Below are positions 3,783 to 47,696 of a stretch of DNA of 64,000 bases, piece by piece. Numbering within the stretch: position 1 is the stretch's first letter; each line of letters begins with the position of its first letter. Under the pieces are notes generated by a model that worked only from the letters and a program-made list of their open reading frames with translations, ran no database searches and was not told where the DNA came from. The position numbers and the translations under genes are program-made. Origin of the DNA: a virus; IMG/VR virus record IMGVR_UViG_3300032607_000303, positions 16,846 to 80,845 of that record; one strand, written 5' to 3'.

Positions 3783-3830
3783 CCTATGATTCCTATGATT
3801 GCTAAGCTACTCTAATGTATCTAATAGCTA

Positions 3831-4277
3831 TTACATAGGCTCATTCCGAAGCATCTCATTTAACTCGTTACTAACTTCCAAGTAAAGGTCAGACATTTCT
3901 TTCAGCTTATCTCTCACACACTCTACTTCAACACGTTTAGCTTCAATGATAGCCTTACGAGTATTCTGTTCCAACAATTTCTCAGCAACTACAAGCTCCC
4001 ATACCGCTGTTGTAATATATTGCTGCGCTGTGAGTTTATCTCGTTCAGCTTCGTAGAGGGATTGTAGGGAAGGCTTTTTACAGGACTCTACAAGTTTGAA
4101 CCTCTCGGCGTTCCATTGCGGCAATTCTGCTGATACTCCAACCATATCCTCTACTGTACCATCCCAACTATTACCGTAGTATAGAATTGTGTATTCTTTA
4201 CCTTTTTTAAGATTAGAACCCCATGAATTTTCATCATAAGTACATATAACACGGTCACCTACATTAAATTTAGCCAT
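3831..4277 (-). CDS. Hypothetical protein (SH3-like N-terminus, coiled coil)
   Basis: MAKFNVGDRV start after AGGAGA SD. Confidence 0.7.
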   Translation of the reverse strand: MAKFNVGDRVICTYDENSWGSNLKKGKEYTILYYGNSWDGTVEDMVGVSAELPQWNAERFKLVESCKKPSLQSLYEAERDKLTAQQYITTAVWELVVAEKLLEQNTRKAIIEAKRVEVECVRDKLKEMSDLYLEVSNELNEMLRNEPM

Positions 4278-7220: not shown

Positions 7221-7816
7221 AGCGCAGCACCATGCCCTTCCGAATAACCAGCACCCTCTGTATTTCTCTGCTCTAGCATATTTACACGGCACTGACAAGC
7301 CATCTTGAAAGCAACTTCATTACCTAATCTGTCTATGGAAAAGTATTTATTAACCCTCTTACCTTCGGAGTTGGCAAAGTATGCACCCCAATACTCCCGA
7401 ACAAGTCCGCTCTTATCGGTATTTACTTTCTTAGATACACCTACAACACCTGATGAGTTTGCTACTGACATAGACCTATTACGATTATTAACCGAGTTAG
7501 TTGTAACTCTAAGGTTTGATATTAGGTTATTAGTTCTATCCCTGTCTACATGATCTATTGGTTTTATACCCAAACCACCGTTGTGAAGTTCGTAGATTAT
7601 CCTGTGGCACAGGTAGGATACAAAGTTAAGGCTTACAACATAATACCCAATACCCTTATGAAAACCTCCAGCTTCGTCGCCGGCAAGCGCCTTGATAATC
7701 TTACCATTACTACCACTTCGCCAATCTTTAACTCGCCTCAAACCTGTCTTAGAAGTTGAATCGTAGTAAAAGTGCTCTGACCAATCTATACCTGAACTAT
7801 CTTTTGCTGTCGTCAT
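7217..7816 (-). CDS. HNH homing endonuclease with AP2-like C-terminus
   Basis: HRIIYE...IDHVDRDRTNNLISNLR; NSSGVVGV. Confidence 0.88.
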   Translation of the reverse strand: MTTAKDSSGIDWSEHFYYDSTSKTGLRRVKDWRSGSNGKIIKALAGDEAGGFHKGIGYYVVSLNFVSYLCHRIIYELHNGGLGIKPIDHVDRDRTNNLISNLRVTTNSVNNRNRSMSVANSSGVVGVSKKVNTDKSGLVREYWGAYFANSEGKRVNKYFSIDRLGNEVAFKMACQCRVNMLEQRNTEGAGYSEGHGAAL

Positions 7817-19324: not shown

Positions 19325-19788
19325 TACGAATTCTCCTTTTGTATAGTGCGATAAAATTTGTGGTTATCAACAATCATGACCAACTCCATCTTTTTAGCCC
19401 ACTTAGGAGTCTTAATAGAAGTATTGTGAAAGTATTCTACCCTATTCCCCAAGACTTTCCTACTACTTTCAACTCTATGTAGCCACTCTTTCATCTTCCC
19501 TGTCATTTCCTTGACAGGCTTCTTACCATACCAACTCCACTGTCCCTTCTCCGCAACCACTTCACAGGCTGTCATATCTCTTATCCGCATCCTATTTTGC
19601 AGAACAGTGAGTACAGCCCGTTGTCCTGCCAGACTGCTCCCACGCGCTTCATAGTAAACTGCTGCATATTTACAGCCAGCCTCAGATGGCCTTTCAGAAG
19701 CTGCGGGAGGGCTTGCTAAAGCTATAACAAGTGCTACTGTTACAAAGGCCCACAAGAGCCTTACACGGGCCTTAATACAAGTCCTCAC
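19324..19788 (-). CDS. SleB/Hydrolase_2 cell wall hydrolase with signal peptide
   Basis: YYEARG...GQ.AV..V..NR, QWSW, YFH, HKFY. Confidence 0.88.
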   Translation of the reverse strand: MRTCIKARVRLLWAFVTVALVIALASPPAASERPSEAGCKYAAVYYEARGSSLAGQRAVLTVLQNRMRIRDMTACEVVAEKGQWSWYGKKPVKEMTGKMKEWLHRVESSRKVLGNRVEYFHNTSIKTPKWAKKMELVMIVDNHKFYRTIQKENS

Positions 19789-20071
19789 TGAACAATATGT
19801 TTGTAGGATTTCCTTTAGGTCTTCGAGTGTTAATCTGCCCTGCTGCTTTAGCTACAGAGAGTGCTTCTGTGCGATCCATAAATATTCCCCATTGGTCAAT
19901 GAAGCCTTGCTCCTCAGTATCTCTATTAAATTTTCCGCCAGAAACCTCGTACTCTTCAAGAGCTTCGCACATGAGCGCATCAAAATGCCTTGCACCAAGT
20001 AGCACAGCAGAACCATTATAGCGATTCGCAGCACACACGACAACTCGAATAGGTTTGTTCGGGGTGGTCAT
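19772..20071 (-). CDS. Conserved phage hypothetical protein
   Basis: VCAA...GARH...QGF.DQ.G.F..R.EA...LFSEDLY pattern. Confidence 0.75.
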   Translation of the reverse strand: MTTPNKPIRVVVCAANRYNGSAVLLGARHFDALMCEALEEYEVSGGKFNRDTEEQGFIDQWGIFMDRTEALSVAKAAGQINTRRPKGNPTNILFSEDLY

Positions 20072-26364: not shown

Positions 26365-26997
26365 GTGCCCGGAGCATTAGGATTTACAATGGTTTGTTTC
26401 TGTAATAAGGATGTTCCTGTAGGTTGTGATGTGTATATTAAAGGTAATTAAAATGCTAGATATAATTGACGTTGTTCTGTGTATATGCTTGTTGTCCTCT
26501 TTAGGGCTATTGGCAATGATCTTGGTAAATTGCAAGAATAATGTGAGGGAGGTTGAGTGAAAGCAATTATGTGGTATTTGCTAGGGTCTTGTACAGCTTC
26601 TGTTTTGGTAGCTGTTTGGATGACTGTTAGGAGTAGGAAGCGTAGTGTTTTTGGTAAGATTGTTTAGTGATTGACACACAATCTTGTGAGGATTTGCACA
26701 AATAATTATGCTACGCATAGGAAATGTGCAAGTTCTCACAAATATTGTACAAAGATAAAAGATTGTCCACAAATATTGTAAGAACAAGATGAACGTAGTG
26801 AATCTTGCAAGGGACAGCAATAGCTGGCACGCAGCCTGAAGGAATGACGTTAGTCAGTCCTAAGGTTCTTATGCTTTAGTCTATCCACCATACAAGTCTG
26901 CCATTATAAAGTCTTGTGCGGTCGTTGTGCGTAGCACAGGTTCTGCACAGTACCTTACAGTGCATAGTTTGTTGATGTATAATGCTTATGTGCAAAG

Positions 26998-33494: not shown

Positions 33495-33788
33495 ATGAAT
33501 AACATTAAAAACACAAAAGAAATTTTTTTCGTCGAAGTTACGGATACATACGGCGGCGAAGCAAACTACAGCTGGGTTCATAAATATCTGGTAAAAGCTA
33601 CTACAATGCGCGGTGCTATAAGCGTAGTTTCAAAGTATGAAGGATTCGCAGGACGTTTAAAGGTTGATGGAAATTATGGCGATATGACACGCCATAACGT
33701 ATCAGGCGCAGCTATTTGCATTTTTACACAATATGCCGATGAGTATAATTCCGGAGGCGTTAGAGCGCTTAATTTTGAGCCTAATTAA
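33495..33788 (+). CDS. Early hypothetical protein
   Basis: VE.TDTYGGEANYSWV motif. Confidence 0.75.
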   Translation: MNNIKNTKEIFFVEVTDTYGGEANYSWVHKYLVKATTMRGAISVVSKYEGFAGRLKVDGNYGDMTRHNVSGAAICIFTQYADEYNSGGVRALNFEPN

Positions 33789-33871
33789 AACAATAAACAA
33801 TAGGCTTTAAAGAACAATATTAGAGCCTATTAATTTATTGTTTTAATGTAGTTCTAACCAGAAAGAAAATC

Positions 33872-37193: not shown

Positions 37194-37841
37194 ATGGCAA
37201 CAATATTTGGGTATGGTCGAGTGAGCCGCACAGGTCAATCTTCAGAGAATCAGCGTCAAGCTATTGAGAAACACCTCGGTAAACCTGTCGATGTCTGGTA
37301 TGAAGACCATGCTGTAAGCGGCACTGTAAAGACCAGTGTGAGGCCATTATTCTCTAGGATGGTGAAAGAGGCTGTAGCTGGTGATACGCTTGTCTTCAAT
37401 CGTGTTGATCGTATATCACGTAGAGCGTCAGATACATTGACAACTGTAGAGGGACTGTTGGAGAGAGGCGTAGAAGTTTATATAATACAGATTGGCAAAG
37501 ACCCTCTTAGTTCTGCTAAGGGTAAGATGATGTTAGGAATATTTGCCATCTTTGCTGAGGACGAGAGAATGGCATTGGTGGAGCGTACAAAGGATGGGCT
37601 TGCCAGAGTTAAAAAGAATGGCGCAATACTTGGCCCTAAGCTGTCTATCAATCCTGAGACATTAAGAGCTTTGTGTATTGGCAGAGCAGATAAGATTACA
37701 TTAGATGTTCTTAGTAACATGTATGGCATAGACAGAAATACAATACTAAGGAATGTAAAGAAGTGGGGAGGTAGCTTAGAAGAATACGAAGCAGAATGGA
37801 ATAAGCGGGATAAGCAATACAAGGCTAAGGAACAAGCGTAA
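37194..37841 (+). CDS. Small serine recombinase (resolvase/invertase family)
   Basis: GYGRVS catalytic motif, Q..ENQ, SG, RP, GDTL..RVDRISR, ERT..GL, C-terminal HTH. Confidence 0.92.
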   Translation: MATIFGYGRVSRTGQSSENQRQAIEKHLGKPVDVWYEDHAVSGTVKTSVRPLFSRMVKEAVAGDTLVFNRVDRISRRASDTLTTVEGLLERGVEVYIIQIGKDPLSSAKGKMMLGIFAIFAEDERMALVERTKDGLARVKKNGAILGPKLSINPETLRALCIGRADKITLDVLSNMYGIDRNTILRNVKKWGGSLEEYEAEWNKRDKQYKAKEQA

Positions 37842-37848
37842 TAAAATA

Positions 37849-37875
37849 GGCCACTAAGAAGTTATCCTAGTGGCC
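37849..37875. terminator. Hairpin between convergent genes
   Basis: GGCCACTA...TAGTGGCC. Confidence 0.6.
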
Positions 37876-37881
37876 TTCATA

Positions 37882-38553
37882 CTACTTAGTATTGTTAATA
37901 CGATCAGAGGCTATATCAAAATACTTCTGATCCACTTCAATTCCTATAAAGTTTCTATTTGTATTAACACAAGCTACACCTGTTGTTCCGCTGCCCATGA
38001 ATATGTCTAGTACAGTTTCATTTACTTTGGAGGAATTTGTTATTAGTTTCTCAATTACATCTAAAGGCTTTTGCGTAATATGCACCTTACCGTTTGAAAG
38101 TTTAGGCATGACAGCTTTGAAGTTATCTCTGCTGGTATAATCATTAATAGGTTTTGCAGCGCCCTTACGAAAGAACAATACAAGCTCAGTCTGCTTGTAG
38201 TACCAACGATTAGGCATACCAGTATCTTTAATCATAGATAGTATATTGTGTAGTTTGAAGCCTACTTTAGTGGCTGCATTCAAATACTCTTGCAAAGAAA
38301 CAGTATTGGTGAAAACGTAAAAGTGTGTCCGTTCCTTCAGTTTATCGAAGCACAAAGTCATCCACTCTTCAGTGTTTGGGATATCTCCCTCAAATACATT
38401 GTTACCCATACTGTTTGGCATCCAGTTAGGGCGACAAGACTTTCCACGCTTAGTCATACGGTAAGGCGGGTCAATTAGAATCAAGTCCACACTTCCACTA
38501 TCTACCTCCTTCATCCGTTCCAAACAATCCCCAAGCATCAACAAACTAGACAT
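37882..38553 (-). CDS. Orphan N6-adenine/N4-cytosine DNA methyltransferase, beta class
   Basis: IDPPY, H.TQKP, VLDIFMGSGTTG. Confidence 0.92.
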   Translation of the reverse strand: MSSLLMLGDCLERMKEVDSGSVDLILIDPPYRMTKRGKSCRPNWMPNSMGNNVFEGDIPNTEEWMTLCFDKLKERTHFYVFTNTVSLQEYLNAATKVGFKLHNILSMIKDTGMPNRWYYKQTELVLFFRKGAAKPINDYTSRDNFKAVMPKLSNGKVHITQKPLDVIEKLITNSSKVNETVLDIFMGSGTTGVACVNTNRNFIGIEVDQKYFDIASDRINNTK

Positions 38554-43493: not shown

Positions 43494-43522
43494 TTGACAA
43501 AAGTGTTAGTTCAGTGTATTAT
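43494..43522 (+). promoter_or_regulatory. Sigma70 promoter for the tRNA/terminase block
   Basis: TTGACA-17-TATTAT. Confidence 0.7.
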
Positions 43523-43554: not shown

Positions 43555-43881
43555 TTGGGGGCGCAGCTACTAATTCCAACAGAAATAAGTTTTAATCGTA
43601 GACAAGCACATCCGTTACAAAAGACTAGCAAGGCTCTCAGTAAGGAAGTTGAAGCCATCATTGAGAAGTTACTGAAGCTTTGTAACAGCCAAGATGAAAA
43701 GACATCTGAGCGTGCATGTAGTAAGTTGCTAGACTATCACATTGAGATGATTTCAGCAATTGAGAAAGACGAGATCACAAGAAAGCTACTCAGCATCAAG
43801 CATGGTAATGGTAGCAGAGATTTGGAAGAGTCTGACAGTATGCCTATGATTGATTTCAATAGCATACAGAATATCGAGTAA
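43555..43881 (+). CDS. Hypothetical protein, possibly terminase small subunit
   Basis: Helical 108-aa ORF, AGGAG SD, upstream of the large terminase; function inferred from position only. Confidence 0.5.
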   Translation: MGAQLLIPTEISFNRRQAHPLQKTSKALSKEVEAIIEKLLKLCNSQDEKTSERACSKLLDYHIEMISAIEKDEITRKLLSIKHGNGSRDLEESDSMPMIDFNSIQNIE

Positions 43882-43994
43882 GAATGTTGTAGTAAAGTCT
43901 CCGAAGGTCGCTACCTGAAGGTTGATAATCGTACCTTACAAATGCGGTGAGGGAAATGTACATATGAGGGTAAAAGTCCTAGCATATTAACAAA

Positions 43995-44071
43995 GCGCCC
44001 TTGGTGAAATTGGTAAACACAGCGGTCTTAGAAGCCGTAAGCTGAAAGTTCGAGTCTTTCAGGGCGCACCA
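43995..44071 (+). tRNA. tRNA-Leu(TAG) with short variable loop
   Basis: GCGCCCT/AGGGCGC-A-CCA, loop CTTAGAA, TTCGAGT. Confidence 0.9.
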
Positions 44072-44097
44072 AACAAGCTGGATAGACAGCTAACACC

Positions 44098-44172
44098 GCC
44101 TTTATAGTTCAGTGATAGAATACGCCCTTTGTACGGGTGAGACGACAGTTTGATTCTAGTCTAGAGGCACCA
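44098..44172 (+). tRNA. tRNA-Thr(TGT), divergent
   Basis: GCCTTTA/TAGAGGC-A-CCA, loop TTTGTAC; D-loop lacks GG, T-loop TTTGATT, bulged T-stem. Confidence 0.65.
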
Positions 44173-44255
44173 CCAATGTAAGCGAATCGGGTTGCAACCC
44201 TTGGGACACTGTGTTGTCTCTAGCTTACACCTATATTAATCCGCACAGGGATAAA

Positions 44256-45011
44256 ATGAAAATAGCAACAAAAGAAAGCGTAATCGCATCTATACTTAGG
44301 TTTGTAACAGAAAATAGTAGGTACCCAACTAAGACAGATTGTAGGGATACTGACTGGTTATACAGTGCGCAAACAAATCGGCGTGTAGTAGGTTCTGTGC
44401 AAGAGATGAATATACTCTCTGATTTTCTTCTTAGCAACCCACTACCAGATAACCCTAAAAGATTTTGCAAGCAATGTGGCAAGGAAATAGACAATAAAGC
44501 AAGGGTATTTTGTAGTAGGTCGTGCTCTGCGAAGTTCAATAATAATACAGAGAAAAAGATAAAGTCAACTCAGAAGATTGAAGTAATTGATAAAGTCCGT
44601 GTTGTAAAAGAAGTTGTTGACCTCGGAAACTGCGTACATTGCAGTAATAAATTGACAGCTAGGAATACGGTATTTTGTTCTACTGCTTGTGCGTCAGATC
44701 ACAGATTAGCACATAGTATTCAAAATTGGTTAAGCAGTGGTAAAGTCCATAATGGAAACCAAGCTATCCGCAGCTATTTAAAACTCTTAGTGGGGGATAG
44801 CTGCTCTGTTTGTGGTATCTTAGAACATAACGGTAAACCTATAACCTTTGAAGTTGACCACATCAGTGGCGACAGTACGGACGATAGATATGAAAATGTC
44901 TGTCTTATTTGTCCAAATTGCCACTCTCAAACAGACACCTACAAAGGTAGAAACAGAGGTAACGGAAGGCACTCAAGGGCGCAGCGTTATCGTGAAGGAA
45001 AGAGTTATTAA
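44256..45011 (+). CDS. Zn-finger HNH endonuclease in the tRNA cluster
   Basis: Two CxxC..FCSxxC fingers, CSVC...EVDHISGD...N..LICPNCHSQT. Confidence 0.88.
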   Translation: MKIATKESVIASILRFVTENSRYPTKTDCRDTDWLYSAQTNRRVVGSVQEMNILSDFLLSNPLPDNPKRFCKQCGKEIDNKARVFCSRSCSAKFNNNTEKKIKSTQKIEVIDKVRVVKEVVDLGNCVHCSNKLTARNTVFCSTACASDHRLAHSIQNWLSSGKVHNGNQAIRSYLKLLVGDSCSVCGILEHNGKPITFEVDHISGDSTDDRYENVCLICPNCHSQTDTYKGRNRGNGRHSRAQRYREGKSY

Positions 45012-45021
45012 ATAGAAGTAA

Positions 45022-45304
45022 AGACCTCTCCCGACTCATTTCCACATGAATATCGGTGAAGTCTCTTTAGAGCCTTTACAGAACCTGCTCCCTAGTGTGA
45101 GTCAGCCTCTCCTCTGCGTCTAAGTTGTAGCAGGTTCTGTAAGTGTTTTAAAGAATTTACATAACTTTGTATGGACTACACGTAAGTGTGTATGTCTGCA
45201 ACGAAGGCTATGTATCTCTATTGTATGAATGTTATACAGTAGCCAAGAGGTGAGGCTCACGACATGGTGAGTAAGTTATCCAGCATGGAAGTGTGGCGTG
45301 GATA
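45022..45304 (+). ncRNA. Candidate structured non-coding RNA
   Basis: Six consecutive hairpins with G-U pairs, a 14-bp perfect stem, GNRA loops and a possible long-range pairing; no credible ORF. Confidence 0.55.
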
Positions 45305-45310
45305 CAGCTT

Positions 45311-45401
45311 GGAAAATTGGCTGAGTGGCTGAAGGCGTCGGTCTTGAAAACCGAAGAACGTTCATAGCGTTTCGTGAGTTCGACTCTCACATTTTCCTCC
45401 A
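45311..45401 (+). tRNA. tRNA-Ser(TGA)
   Basis: GGAAAAT/ATTTTCC-T-CCA, loop CTTGAAA, long variable arm. Confidence 0.92.
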
Positions 45402-45556
45402 AGATTATTTTGTAATAGGCTCGACCATCCGAGAGGATGTGTCGGGCTGTAGTTTCTTTAGTAAGTATTCTTAATAGAGTGCATTGGTTGTGTCCCTCCA
45501 AGGCTTCCTGTGCATTCTGTTAAGAAGATTTATTAACTTCCCTTGGAGGGAATTGT

Positions 45557-46255
45557 ATGACAGAAGTAAAGGTAGGAATGAAATTCACCAAGTTAACCGT
45601 AGTTGCTCCAGCAGGTAAGAGTAAATGGTTATGTTCATGTGACTGCGGAAACGAGAAAGTACTCTGTTCATCAATGCTGACATCTAACCATAATAAAAGT
45701 TGTGGTTGCTCTGTAGATAGACATGGTATGCGTTACCATCGCGCTTACAAGAGTTGGCTCCACATGAAACAGCGTTGCACTAATCCAGAAAACCTAGATT
45801 ACCCTAATTACGGTGGTCGTGGTATTACAGTACATGAAGATTTTGCTAAATCGTTTCCAGTATGGCTTGCAGCAATTGGTGAGCGACCAGAAGGCCGTTA
45901 CAGCATCGGACGTATTGACAATAATCTTGGTTATACTTACGGAAATATTCGATGGGAAGATGATGAACAACAATCTCGTAACCATTGCAAATCCGTAACA
46001 AATAAGACTGGGATTGTTGGAGTTGTCTATCGAGAGCGAAACATAAATGGAGGAATTTACTGCATTTGGGTAGCTCAATGGGCCAACGAAACTAATAAAA
46101 AGAAATCAAAAGACTTTAGTTGTAATAAGTATGGTTACGATGTAGCCAAGCAACTTGCTATTGATTATCGAAATAAAATGATGGTAGAGCTAAACATCCG
46201 AGGATTTGATTACGCAGAATCTCACGGTAGTGTAAAGGAGATTTTGAATGGCTAA
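45557..46255 (+). CDS. HNH-like homing endonuclease with AP2-like C-terminus
   Basis: W.C.CDCG, SCGC, MKQRC.N...YGGRGI, SIGRIDNN.GY..GNIRW, TGIVGV. Confidence 0.85.
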   Translation: MTEVKVGMKFTKLTVVAPAGKSKWLCSCDCGNEKVLCSSMLTSNHNKSCGCSVDRHGMRYHRAYKSWLHMKQRCTNPENLDYPNYGGRGITVHEDFAKSFPVWLAAIGERPEGRYSIGRIDNNLGYTYGNIRWEDDEQQSRNHCKSVTNKTGIVGVVYRERNINGGIYCIWVAQWANETNKKKSKDFSCNKYGYDVAKQLAIDYRNKMMVELNIRGFDYAESHGSVKEILNG

Positions 46256-47696
46256 AGATATACGCTTGTCCTTTGGGCCAGCAAGTTTAAAACAGCAAAT
46301 GGTCTTACAAGATATGGAGACTGATTTGCTGGTCGTTGGCGGAGGCAATGGCGGGGGCAAGAGCCACATGGCGTTAGTAAAGGCTCTGAAGTATGTACAA
46401 GACCCTAATGCTGTTGTGCTGATCGTTCGCCTCAGTTACCCGCTTCTCAAAAGTGCGGGTGGCTTAGTAAGTGAATCAAAGCATATTTACAGCCACTTCA
46501 AAGCCACTTGGAAAGAACAGAAACTTGAGTGGCATTTCCCTAACGGTGCCCTCATTAAATTTTATGCAATGCCACAGGATTTGACACAACTTCAAGGCCA
46601 ACAATACAGTAACATCATTGTGGATGAGGCAGCAGAGTTTACCCTTGCAGATATTCTTGCCCTACGTGCCCGCCTTCGGGCGGTTCGCTATAAGGGTAAG
46701 TTGAACATGATGGCGACCTGTAATCCGTCTAGGAGTAGCTGGTTATTTGACTTTGTTTCCTATTCACTTGATGAAGACGGTGTTCCACTAGCAGGTACAG
46801 AGGATATAACTAGGTGGTTTGTTATTTTGGCAGGAAAAATATTCTGGGGTAATTCTAGGGAAGATTTGTTTGAGCGTCATGGACAAGGGTATGTTCTTGG
46901 TGGTGACTTTAGGCCACTAAGTTTTCGTTTTATTCCTATGGATATCTACTCTAACCCAATCCTTCTAAAGAATAATCCTGCCTACCTTGCAGACCTTCTA
47001 GCGCAGAGCCGAGTAAATCAGTTACGCTTTCTAAAAGGTAGCTGGACGGCAGTGACTGAAGGTAATTCGTATATTCGTAGGGAGTGGTTCAATTTTGTAT
47101 CTTTCCCACCCTCAGAGGTAACAAACAGAGGTCGTGGATGGGATACTGCTGCGTCAGTTGTATCTGAATCAAATCCACACTGTGATGCGACAGCAGGTGT
47201 CTTAATGTCTCGTGATAAAATGGGACATTACTATATAGAAGATTGTAACACATTTAGGAAACTAACGGATGGAGTTCTGCGGGAGATCACCAATACAGCA
47301 CACAATGACGGATTAGACGTCCCTATACTACTTGAGCGGGATACAGGTGCGGGTGGCAAAATTGCTAACGTGTATTTTACTAAGTATCTATCCGAGCAAG
47401 GATGTATTGTACGGTCAACTCAGATGAGTGGTCACAGTAGTAAGATTAATCGAATATTACCTTTTGCACAAATGGTAGAAGCAAGGGCAGTTAGTATTGT
47501 TCGCTATGGTGACTCTAGGGACGAATGGATTGAACCTTACCTAACAGAGCTTGAGAGTTTTGATGGGGGTAGGAGAGGTCATGATGATATGGTTGATGCC
47601 ACAGGTTGTGTATTCAATTACCTTTGCAGGTCTGTACAGATACCCACATTTTTTATCCCAAGCCTAACCCAAGCATCACCCATACCAGTAATATAA
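46248..47696 (+). CDS. terL: Terminase large subunit
   Basis: GGGNGGGKS Walker A, IIVDEA Walker B, ATCNP, WDTA, HDDMVDA. Confidence 0.93.
   Translation: MAKDIRLSFGPASLKQQMVLQDMETDLLVVGGGNGGGKSHMALVKALKYVQDPNAVVLIVRLSYPLLKSAGGLVSESKHIYSHFKATWKEQKLEWHFPNGALIKFYAMPQDLTQLQGQQYSNIIVDEAAEFTLADILALRARLRAVRYKGKLNMMATCNPSRSSWLFDFVSYSLDEDGVPLAGTEDITRWFVILAGKIFWGNSREDLFERHGQGYVLGGDFRPLSFRFIPMDIYSNPILLKNNPAYLADLLAQSRVNQLRFLKGSWTAVTEGNSYIRREWFNFVSFPPSEVTNRGRGWDTAASVVSESNPHCDATAGVLMSRDKMGHYYIEDCNTFRKLTDGVLREITNTAHNDGLDVPILLERDTGAGGKIANVYFTKYLSEQGCIVRSTQMSGHSSKINRILPFAQMVEARAVSIVRYGDSRDEWIEPYLTELESFDGGRRGHDDMVDATGCVFNYLCRSVQIPTFFIPSLTQASPIPVI

Follow-up and report, generated by a model that had tools for sequence, protein, structure and literature searches.

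What is the strongly structured stretch that lies between an HNH nuclease gene and a tRNA-Ser gene in this virus, and which of its neighbours does it serve? The window (the whole 64,000-nucleotide stretch of DNA analysed here) comprises bases 16846–80845 of an 80,845-base IMG/VR virus record that carries direct terminal repeats. The original prediction had proposed a single undescribed noncoding RNA of about 285 nt at 45022–45304, either a partner of the adjacent HNH protein or an independent regulator. Our analysis indicates, with high confidence, that the locus holds a new conserved RNA motif of the terL leader that is unrelated to the HNH gene. The features of the locus, in window positions, are as follows.

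43494–43522, promoter-like site (11/12 matches) ahead of the small ORF
43555–43881, small ORF
43995–44071, tRNA-Leu
44098–44169, tRNA, found by Rfam only (46.4 bits) and not called by ARAGORN
44211–45011, + strand, HNH homing-endonuclease-like gene (phrog_10822, E 1.1e-23; weak Pfam HNH match)
45012–45063, + strand, first hairpin region (45022–45064 in the original prediction), in the minimum free energy (MFE) fold
45064–45154, + strand, long hairpin P1 with a perfect 14-bp stem and a basal stem, in the MFE fold
45104–45115, + strand, CU-rich word AGCCUCUCCUCU in the P1 apical loop
45158–45214, + strand, hairpin P2 with a GUAA loop, in the MFE fold
45218–45242, + strand, hairpin P3, 11 bp, directly 5′ of the conserved motif, in the MFE fold
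45244–45308, + strand, conserved motif, 67 positions (model R2, 50.9 bits, E 6.4e-08)
45311–45401, + strand, tRNA-Ser(UGA) (ARAGORN and Rfam), beginning 2 nt past the motif
45418–45448, + strand, G+C-rich hairpin followed by a U-rich tail (from the fold)
45458–45551, + strand, module B, a long hairpin (45458–45536) plus a downstream Shine-Dalgarno region
45557–46255, + strand, AP2-domain homing-endonuclease-like gene (Pfam AP2, E 1.3e-09; phrog_374, E 8.8e-44)
46248–47696, + strand, TerL, large terminase subunit (Pfam Terminase_6N and Terminase_6C)

Predicted folding and strand

All six hairpins that had been claimed are present in the MFE fold of 45012–45310, whose energy of −97.6 kcal/mol compares with −76.09 ± 4.88 kcal/mol for 200 dinucleotide shuffles (z −4.41), none of which folded as well. 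The minus strand of the same stretch reached −85.8 kcal/mol (z −4.39). The plus strand was the more stable one in each of the four spacers compared, namely part A of the window (−97.6 vs −85.8 kcal/mol), part B of the window (−61.3 vs −37.7), the spacer of the relative L003 (−125.3 vs −94.8) and that of L004 (−98.1 vs −77.0), and G-U pairs were more numerous on the plus strand in all four. The greater stability of the plus strand and its richness in G-U pairs point to an RNA read in the direction of the genes. When the whole window was folded in sliding pieces of 200 nt, 45001–45650 supplied 7 of the 25 strongest plus-strand outliers, the strongest overall being 45351–45550 (z −4.33), and no other plus-strand region of the window is as structured. 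Judged by these computed folds, the stretch is a real structured RNA of the plus strand; its structure does not end at 45304, as had been claimed, but runs on past tRNA-Ser to 45556 (z −7.34). The same 200-nt scan gave further outliers with z between −2.9 and −3.5 at 26551–26750 and 33651–33850 on the plus strand and at 37801–38000 and 19601–19800 on the minus strand.

Similarity to known RNAs and to other phages

As the original prediction had anticipated, the structured stretch belongs to no Rfam family: in a search of the window region against Rfam 15 only tRNAs reached their gathering score, and ARAGORN and Rfam likewise exclude a tRNA, a tmRNA, an RNase P RNA or a group I intron. At E ≤ 10, the sole match wholly inside 45012–45310 was a chance-level microRNA that scored 19.2 bits (gathering score 62.6); a weak sX4 match at 45297–45420, with 30.6 of the 70 bits required, lies over tRNA-Ser. 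Seven homologous loci searched at E ≤ 1 yielded tRNAs and tRNA antisense matches only. A 2023 catalogue (PMC10690425) comprises 10,006 candidate structured RNAs drawn from IMG/VR and RNA viruses, the same data source and kind of object as ours; its available passages mention 14 candidates situated before a putative large terminase family and 1246 terminator-containing ones. The motif described below is new to Rfam 15; those passages do not describe it, and it may already figure among the candidates of the catalogue.

Among GenBank phages, neither megablast nor blastn gave a match to the region, and the closest cultured TerL proteins are 37–44% identical. A relative's motif plus terminator, searched against the same phages, gave chance matches in Helicobacter phages only. 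Relatives were gathered as TerL-anchored IMG/VR loci, to which a wider TerL alignment added 80 more. The nearest relative is L003, with a TerL 90% identical; it gives no blastn match to the region and carries a 363-nt, strongly structured spacer (z −5.0) following a tRNA-Thr; comparable spacers occur in L004 (TerL 46%) and L046 (TerL 47%). The last of these was found through a shared 17-letter word, which occurs in 17 stretches: one on the contig of L003, one in the new homologue L046, and the rest in stretches that match little beyond the word. A search for the exact 14-bp stem pattern gave no match in IMG/VR. A metagenome TerL scan returned relatives of 41% identity or less, bar one partial match at 51%, and the spacers had no blastn match among the sequences of that scan. 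Reads from four other runs (80% likeness) assembled into a contig that covers 45140–45309 with 4 differences, a different P1 and a different tRNA behind; these read contigs give a faint hint of pieces of relatives.

Comparison of the spacers shows how far the predicted unit of about 285 nt extends. The first hairpin region has no counterpart in the spacer alignment of L003, L004 and L046 and is, by this alignment, specific to the window lineage. By eye, P1 homologues in these three relatives have other stem letters with the same CUCUCC loop word, and P1 is missing from L211, L174 and L180. P2-like hairpins are present in L003 (GUAA loop) and L004, a GCGA-loop hairpin stands in the corresponding place in L046, and the P3 position is occupied in many relatives by some unrelated hairpin (by eye). 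Only the last 65 nt are widely conserved, while P1 homologues are confined to a few near relatives. The claim of an undescribed RNA thus holds for an RNA element without an Rfam match, but not for its extent, since the conserved part is 45244–45308 only.

A conserved motif with covarying stems

Eleven spacers share a common layout of GUGGAGAGG, a hairpin, and a second hairpin with a conserved loop. In full, the motif consists of an unpaired GUGGAGAGG-like tract, hairpin a, a CUAAG-like linker and hairpin b, whose conserved loop reads A(U)(A)GGnAGnGUG. In the window copy, the purine tract AGAGGUGAGG (45246–45255) is unpaired, hairpin a pairs 45256–45260 with 45267–45271 around the loop GACAUG, the linker is UAAGU, and hairpin b pairs about 45277–45284 with 45296–45304 around the loop AUGGAAGUGUG. 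The motif therefore comprises the downstream partner of the predicted pseudoknot together with the fifth and sixth predicted hairpins, and by model R2 it occurs only once in the 80,845-base genome.

Because MAFFT aligned neither the long hairpin nor the motif consistently with the structure, a first covariance model (R1) was seeded from two sequences of near-identical length; it gave 39 matches in 96 sources. Model R2, rebuilt from these 39, matched 55 times in 99 sources; another 100 sources yielded 3 matches, which were the closest TerL relatives of that set. Together, the two models gave 92 matches, 77 of them distinct, all in the orientation of TerL. For the motif, the covariation score was 0.96–1.07 against about 0.2 in shuffled alignments:

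A7: cells paired 98.0% (58.7% shuffled); covariation 0.961 (0.217 shuffled)
A8: cells paired 98.8% (54.6% shuffled); covariation 1.072 (0.220 shuffled)
A9: cells paired 98.1% (54.7% shuffled); covariation 0.970 (0.189 shuffled)

Both sides change in all 14 pairs of A7, for which none of 500 shuffles scored as high and slid controls reached at most 0.135 (at or below 0.16 across A7, A8 and A9). Each stem pair takes four to six pair types and varies on both sides, except for two closing G-C pairs in A9, which are invariant because the search pattern fixed them. A7, A8 and A9 were fitted to the model structure, which favours pairing, but the margin is nonetheless large, and the members of A9 were found through a pattern of unpaired letters alone. 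That pattern occurs in 62 stretches of IMG/VR viral contigs, 34 of which pass R2. Among the 80 matches listed for the same pattern in bacterial genomes there was one weak R2 pass (L347, 4841–4905, 26.2 bits); it lies on a 5.8-kb contig from an uncultured-bacterium bin, which may be a mis-binned phage. The 67-nt object and its covariance model can be used to annotate many metagenomic phage genomes.

Position relative to TerL, tRNAs and terminators

Of the 34 loci in a motif-first sample, 26 have TerL on the same strand downstream of the motif. Another five are too short for a verdict, two show no TerL across 4.3 kb or more, and in one TerL precedes the motif, so that the order holds in 26 of the 29 judgeable loci. 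Some motifs lie 1–5 kb upstream of TerL. In the one exception to the usual order, L283, the copy (7328–7391, 59.5 bits) is situated about 6.5 kb downstream of a partial TerL. A tRNA cluster directly upstream of TerL is common across the clade (L141–L218), often starting with tRNA-Thr(UGU). Among 70 instances, 10 have a same-strand tRNA ending within 100 nt upstream of the motif and 28 have one within 300 nt; in L176 the gap is just 4 nt. On these gene orders, the leader sits between the tRNA cluster (or a preceding small gene) and the packaging genes. Where relatives have neither tRNAs nor motif, the small gene directly adjoins TerL, which suggests one transcription unit.

By genome comparison, the leader RNA is a feature of a large clade of uncultured tailed phages, most of whose long contigs are about 80–93 kb. 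Some relatives lack the motif (L142, L151, L154 and L164), and it was not found at the locus of the Pakpunavirus EM or in two Otagovirus records. In EM, a cultured Pseudomonas phage (L219), a tRNA cluster likewise stands directly before TerL, with 58 nt between the end of tRNA-Thr and TerL.

Behind 43 of the 77 distinct instances stands an intrinsic terminator, which typically begins within a few bases of the motif and whose U-run starts a median of 39 nt (range 30–50) past it; by the strict criterion used, the other 34 have none. From the U-run to TerL, or to an inserted homing-endonuclease gene, the distance is often about 20–45 nt, which is too close for a promoter. The layout is exemplified by L144 (3677–3947), in which a 12/12 sigma-70 promoter with an extended −10 is followed by a leader of about 110 nt, the motif at 3816–3883, a 14-bp terminator at 3888–3921 and, about 25 nt past the terminator, the TerL ATG at 3947. 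Promoter-like sites upstream of the motif are not enriched in general: 9 of 71 instances have one, where the background rate is 0.105 per 300 nt, and a put-like position just after a promoter is therefore not the rule. In L183, L187 and L172 there is no terminator and the motif abuts the ribosome site of TerL, ending 15 nt before TerL in L183.

The window differs from its relatives at this point. It is the only one of the 77 distinct instances in which a tRNA starts within 20 nt downstream, and its motif has no terminator behind it; tRNA-Ser stands where relatives have the intrinsic terminator. Given that tRNA-Ser takes the terminator's place, RNase P would cut 2 nt after the motif, and the proposal that RNase P could define the 3′ end of the RNA in this phage stands. 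The hairpin at 45418–45448 with its U-rich tail is a possible weak terminator on the basis of its fold and was not flagged in the terminator scan.

The proposed pseudoknot

The letters of the two pseudoknot strands, AGCCTCTCCTCT at 45104–45115 and AGAGGTGAGGCT at 45246–45257, are as originally written. The predicted 11/12 complementarity between them holds, with one U-U mismatch, and is non-random in the window: shuffling the downstream part gave an equally good match in 3 of 1000 trials, and shuffling the loop did so in 10 of 1000. It is not conserved across the family, however, as a perfect upstream complement of at least 7 nt to the purine tract occurs in only 6 of 46 members, and in L046 the changes flanking the pseudoknot are, in our reading, uncompensated. 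A family-wide pseudoknot with an upstream CU-rich loop was accordingly dropped, and the sequence gives slight grounds for a long-range pseudoknot in the window. Hairpins with CU-rich, anti-Shine-Dalgarno-like apical loops were seen by eye upstream of the motif or beside it in L183, L187, L172, L152, L162, L166, L145 and L213, and in L152 and L162 they are present even without the motif. A kissing pair between the two loops of the motif was also rejected: UAUG/CAUA, CAUG/CAUG, CUG/CAG and UUG/CAA look compensated by eye, but many combinations misfit, and the pairing would break a closing G-C pair.

A possible role in transcription termination

What might such a leader do? From its structure, strand, conservation, covariation and position, and from the terminator behind it, we infer an effect on termination. 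The reading that we favour, with somewhat less than even confidence, is that the motif is a cis-acting leader element that governs termination and controls read-through into the packaging genes. The motif in the nascent transcript would decide whether RNA polymerase passes the terminator into the packaging and late genes, and, in the manner of put or nut, it would do so by attaching to polymerase or a factor and not by refolding as a riboswitch does. Since read-through of the terminator is needed for TerL and the conserved RNA before it cannot refold, a put- or nut-like signal is the simplest explanation. The upstream hairpins (45012–45242) would be optional additions; in the window phage, the CU-rich P1 loop may mask the purine tract and RNase P would release the RNA just behind the motif. 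Against termination control stand the 34 of 77 instances without a terminator, among them that of the window, the motifs placed 1–5 kb upstream of TerL, and the lack of promoter enrichment. Moreover, a leaky terminator with a stable trailer RNA would give the same layout without antitermination.

To our knowledge, few RNA elements act on the transcribing polymerase, and put is known only from HK022-like phages. In lambda, the terminator tR′ between the promoter pR′ and the late and terminase genes is overridden with Q, which acts through a DNA site, and nut combines a conserved single-stranded box with a hairpin. The motif resembles lambda late control in having a terminator before the terminase genes to override, and nut in its combination of box and hairpin; it differs from the N/nut system in that no likeness to boxA or boxB was seen and no antiterminator protein was identified. 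The put RNA, as described in the passages available from PMC9378689, is about 70 nt long with two stem-loops. HK022 putL and putR thus share with the motif a length of ~70 nt, two stem-loops and a place upstream of terminators in a phage operon. According to the same passages put works in cis and does not refold against the terminator (PMC9378689), and the motif likewise has no pairing with its terminator. There are differences: put lies just after early promoters, whereas the motif leads the packaging genes, often behind tRNAs, and the motif, unlike put, has a conserved unpaired purine tract. The put RNA binds the β′ zinc-binding domain of the polymerase and suppresses termination with no need of protein factors; the motif would be a candidate for such binding. 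Model R2 finds no match at E ≤ 10 in the whole HK022 genome, which carries putL and putR, so that there is no homology to put.

A further step, which we consider unlikely, would be that the motif represents a second, unrelated class of put-like RNA that makes the host polymerase terminator-resistant and so times the late and packaging genes or, more boldly, that it is an RNA cofactor of the packaging machinery, the P1 loop being a built-in mask of the purine tract in some lineages. The PF00940 (single-subunit polymerase) profile had no match, and its control also matched nowhere. The motif would be a useful test case for how large lytic phages, apparently without a polymerase of their own, switch on their packaging genes.

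Other explanations of the motif

The best-surviving alternative, which has a modest chance of being right, is a stand-alone stable small RNA, in which motif plus terminator form the 3′ trailer of a tRNA or early transcript and act in trans, the 5′ end being set by tRNA processing or a promoter and the 3′ end by the terminator. It would account for the fixed distance of the terminator in 43 of 77 instances, for the proximity of upstream tRNAs, for the lack of alternative pairing between motif and terminator and, in the window, for a 3′ end that RNase P would free. By eye, an A/U-rich (AAUUU-like) spacer precedes the terminator hairpin, and such a spacer plus terminator resembles the Hfq-binding module of small RNAs. 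Among known RNAs, species 1 and 2 of T4 are stable RNAs of the tRNA region, and the 3′ external transcribed spacer of E. coli leuZ is reportedly a sponge RNA from a tRNA operon. Like the motif, these are structured RNAs other than tRNAs that close a tRNA cluster on its 3′ side and whose own end comes from a terminator or from tRNA processing, as proposed here; unlike them, the motif heads the TerL transcription unit and occurs also without a nearby tRNA. TerL begins so near the terminator that there is no room for a separate promoter, which places the element within the TerL transcription unit regardless of any other role. Furthermore, a small RNA ending at a terminator does not fit L183, L187 and L172, and the candidate has no known target.

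It is rather improbable that the motif is a ribosome-docking 5′ element, in which the Shine-Dalgarno-like tract and an NUG that follows it by about 9 nt, within the hairpin a loop, bind the 30S subunit and either translate a mini-ORF or protect the processed 5′ end of the TerL mRNA, for which STAB-SD offers a comparison in the protection of mRNA 5′ ends. Nearly all of the 48 distinct sequences listed carry a GGAGAGG-like tract, most of their hairpin a loops end in NUG, and the motif often follows a tRNA, whose processing would leave a new 5′ end. The loop endings among these 48 (about 17 AUG, 16 UUG, 8 CUG, 4 AAG and 3 other) include CUG and AAG but never GUG, which is odd for a start codon, and in most members a terminator stands between the motif and TerL. 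A leader mini-ORF was rejected, as there is no conserved start codon, frame or peptide; the ORFs range from 3 to about 57 codons (by eye), and that of the window runs into tRNA-Ser.

Still less probable is a small-molecule riboswitch with the terminator as its expression platform, although the conserved unpaired letters, covarying stems and terminator right behind would suit one, as would the few members placed directly at a ribosome site instead. No mutually exclusive pairing exists: in 34 instances, the complementarity of the motif to the 5′ strand of the terminator (mean 4.65 vs 4.77 for permuted partners) and to its 3′ strand (4.35 vs 4.24) equals that of permuted partners, and antiterminator pairing between motif and terminator was dropped. 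In addition, the downstream genes serve packaging rather than metabolism or transport, and two plain hairpins offer no evident ligand pocket.

We regard as very improbable a packaging or terminase recognition site that acts as DNA, not RNA. It would suit the position beside the terminase gene and the minus strand of the window stretch, which also folds well; yet 14 pairs covary, G-U and U-G pairs, which are A-C mismatches on the other strand, are frequent (GU:12 and UG:10 at two A8 pairs), the plus strand is the more stable in four spacers, and every match is on a single strand. In our estimate the probability that the RNA serves the adjacent HNH nuclease as partner or guide, in the manner of HEARO/IscB, is negligible; the one point in favour is adjacency in the window genome, and the evidence against is as follows.

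Inserted genes around the leader

Of 91 motif loci, 3 hold a relative of the HNH protein, with the gene inside tRNA clusters, and the other 88 hold none, which refutes the partnership originally proposed. L003, L004 and L046 have the homologous RNA spacer without the HNH gene, and a peptide-pattern scan found no relative of the protein in IMG/VR. A contig from another lake joins 43957 to 45188 through 342 other letters and so lacks the HNH gene, weak evidence given that its reads have 80% likeness. HEARO and other Rfam families were unmatched at E ≤ 10. The omega RNA of HEARO/IscB likewise lies beside an HNH-domain gene; the motif differs in having no Rfam match and no co-distribution with the HNH gene. 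On this distribution, the HNH gene is an insertion in the tRNA cluster, separate from the RNA element. Its situation resembles that of T4 segB, an endonuclease gene inside a tRNA cluster according to the passages available from PMC2988022.

The AP2-type gene is inserted between the leader and TerL, its 3′ end overlapping the TerL start at 46248. Homing-endonuclease genes and tRNAs thus insert around the conserved leader and leave it intact.

Module B is a neighbouring element of a different kind. Its loop UCCCUCCAAGG (45493–45503) is the exact complement of the Shine-Dalgarno region CCUUGGAGGGA (45541–45551) of the AP2-type gene, and 9–11 contiguous pairs of this loop–Shine-Dalgarno pairing are kept in 10 of 12 homologues, in six sequence versions. 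That 45458–45551 would be a separate control element of the inserted endonuclease gene is well supported by this comparison. Sequestration of the ribosome site in homing-endonuclease genes is described for I-TevI, I-TevII, I-TevIII, segB and mobE in the available part of PMC2988022. Like the structures of these genes, module B would hide the Shine-Dalgarno region of an endonuclease gene; unlike the known cases, which use a simple stem, it would pair the ribosome site with the apical loop of a long upstream hairpin, forming a loop-to-tail pseudoknot.

The slot between leader and TerL holds an endonuclease gene of the phrog_374 type in the window and of phrog_681 in L003 (4811–5989) and L046 (5614–7053), and in all three genomes that gene abuts or overlaps the start of TerL.
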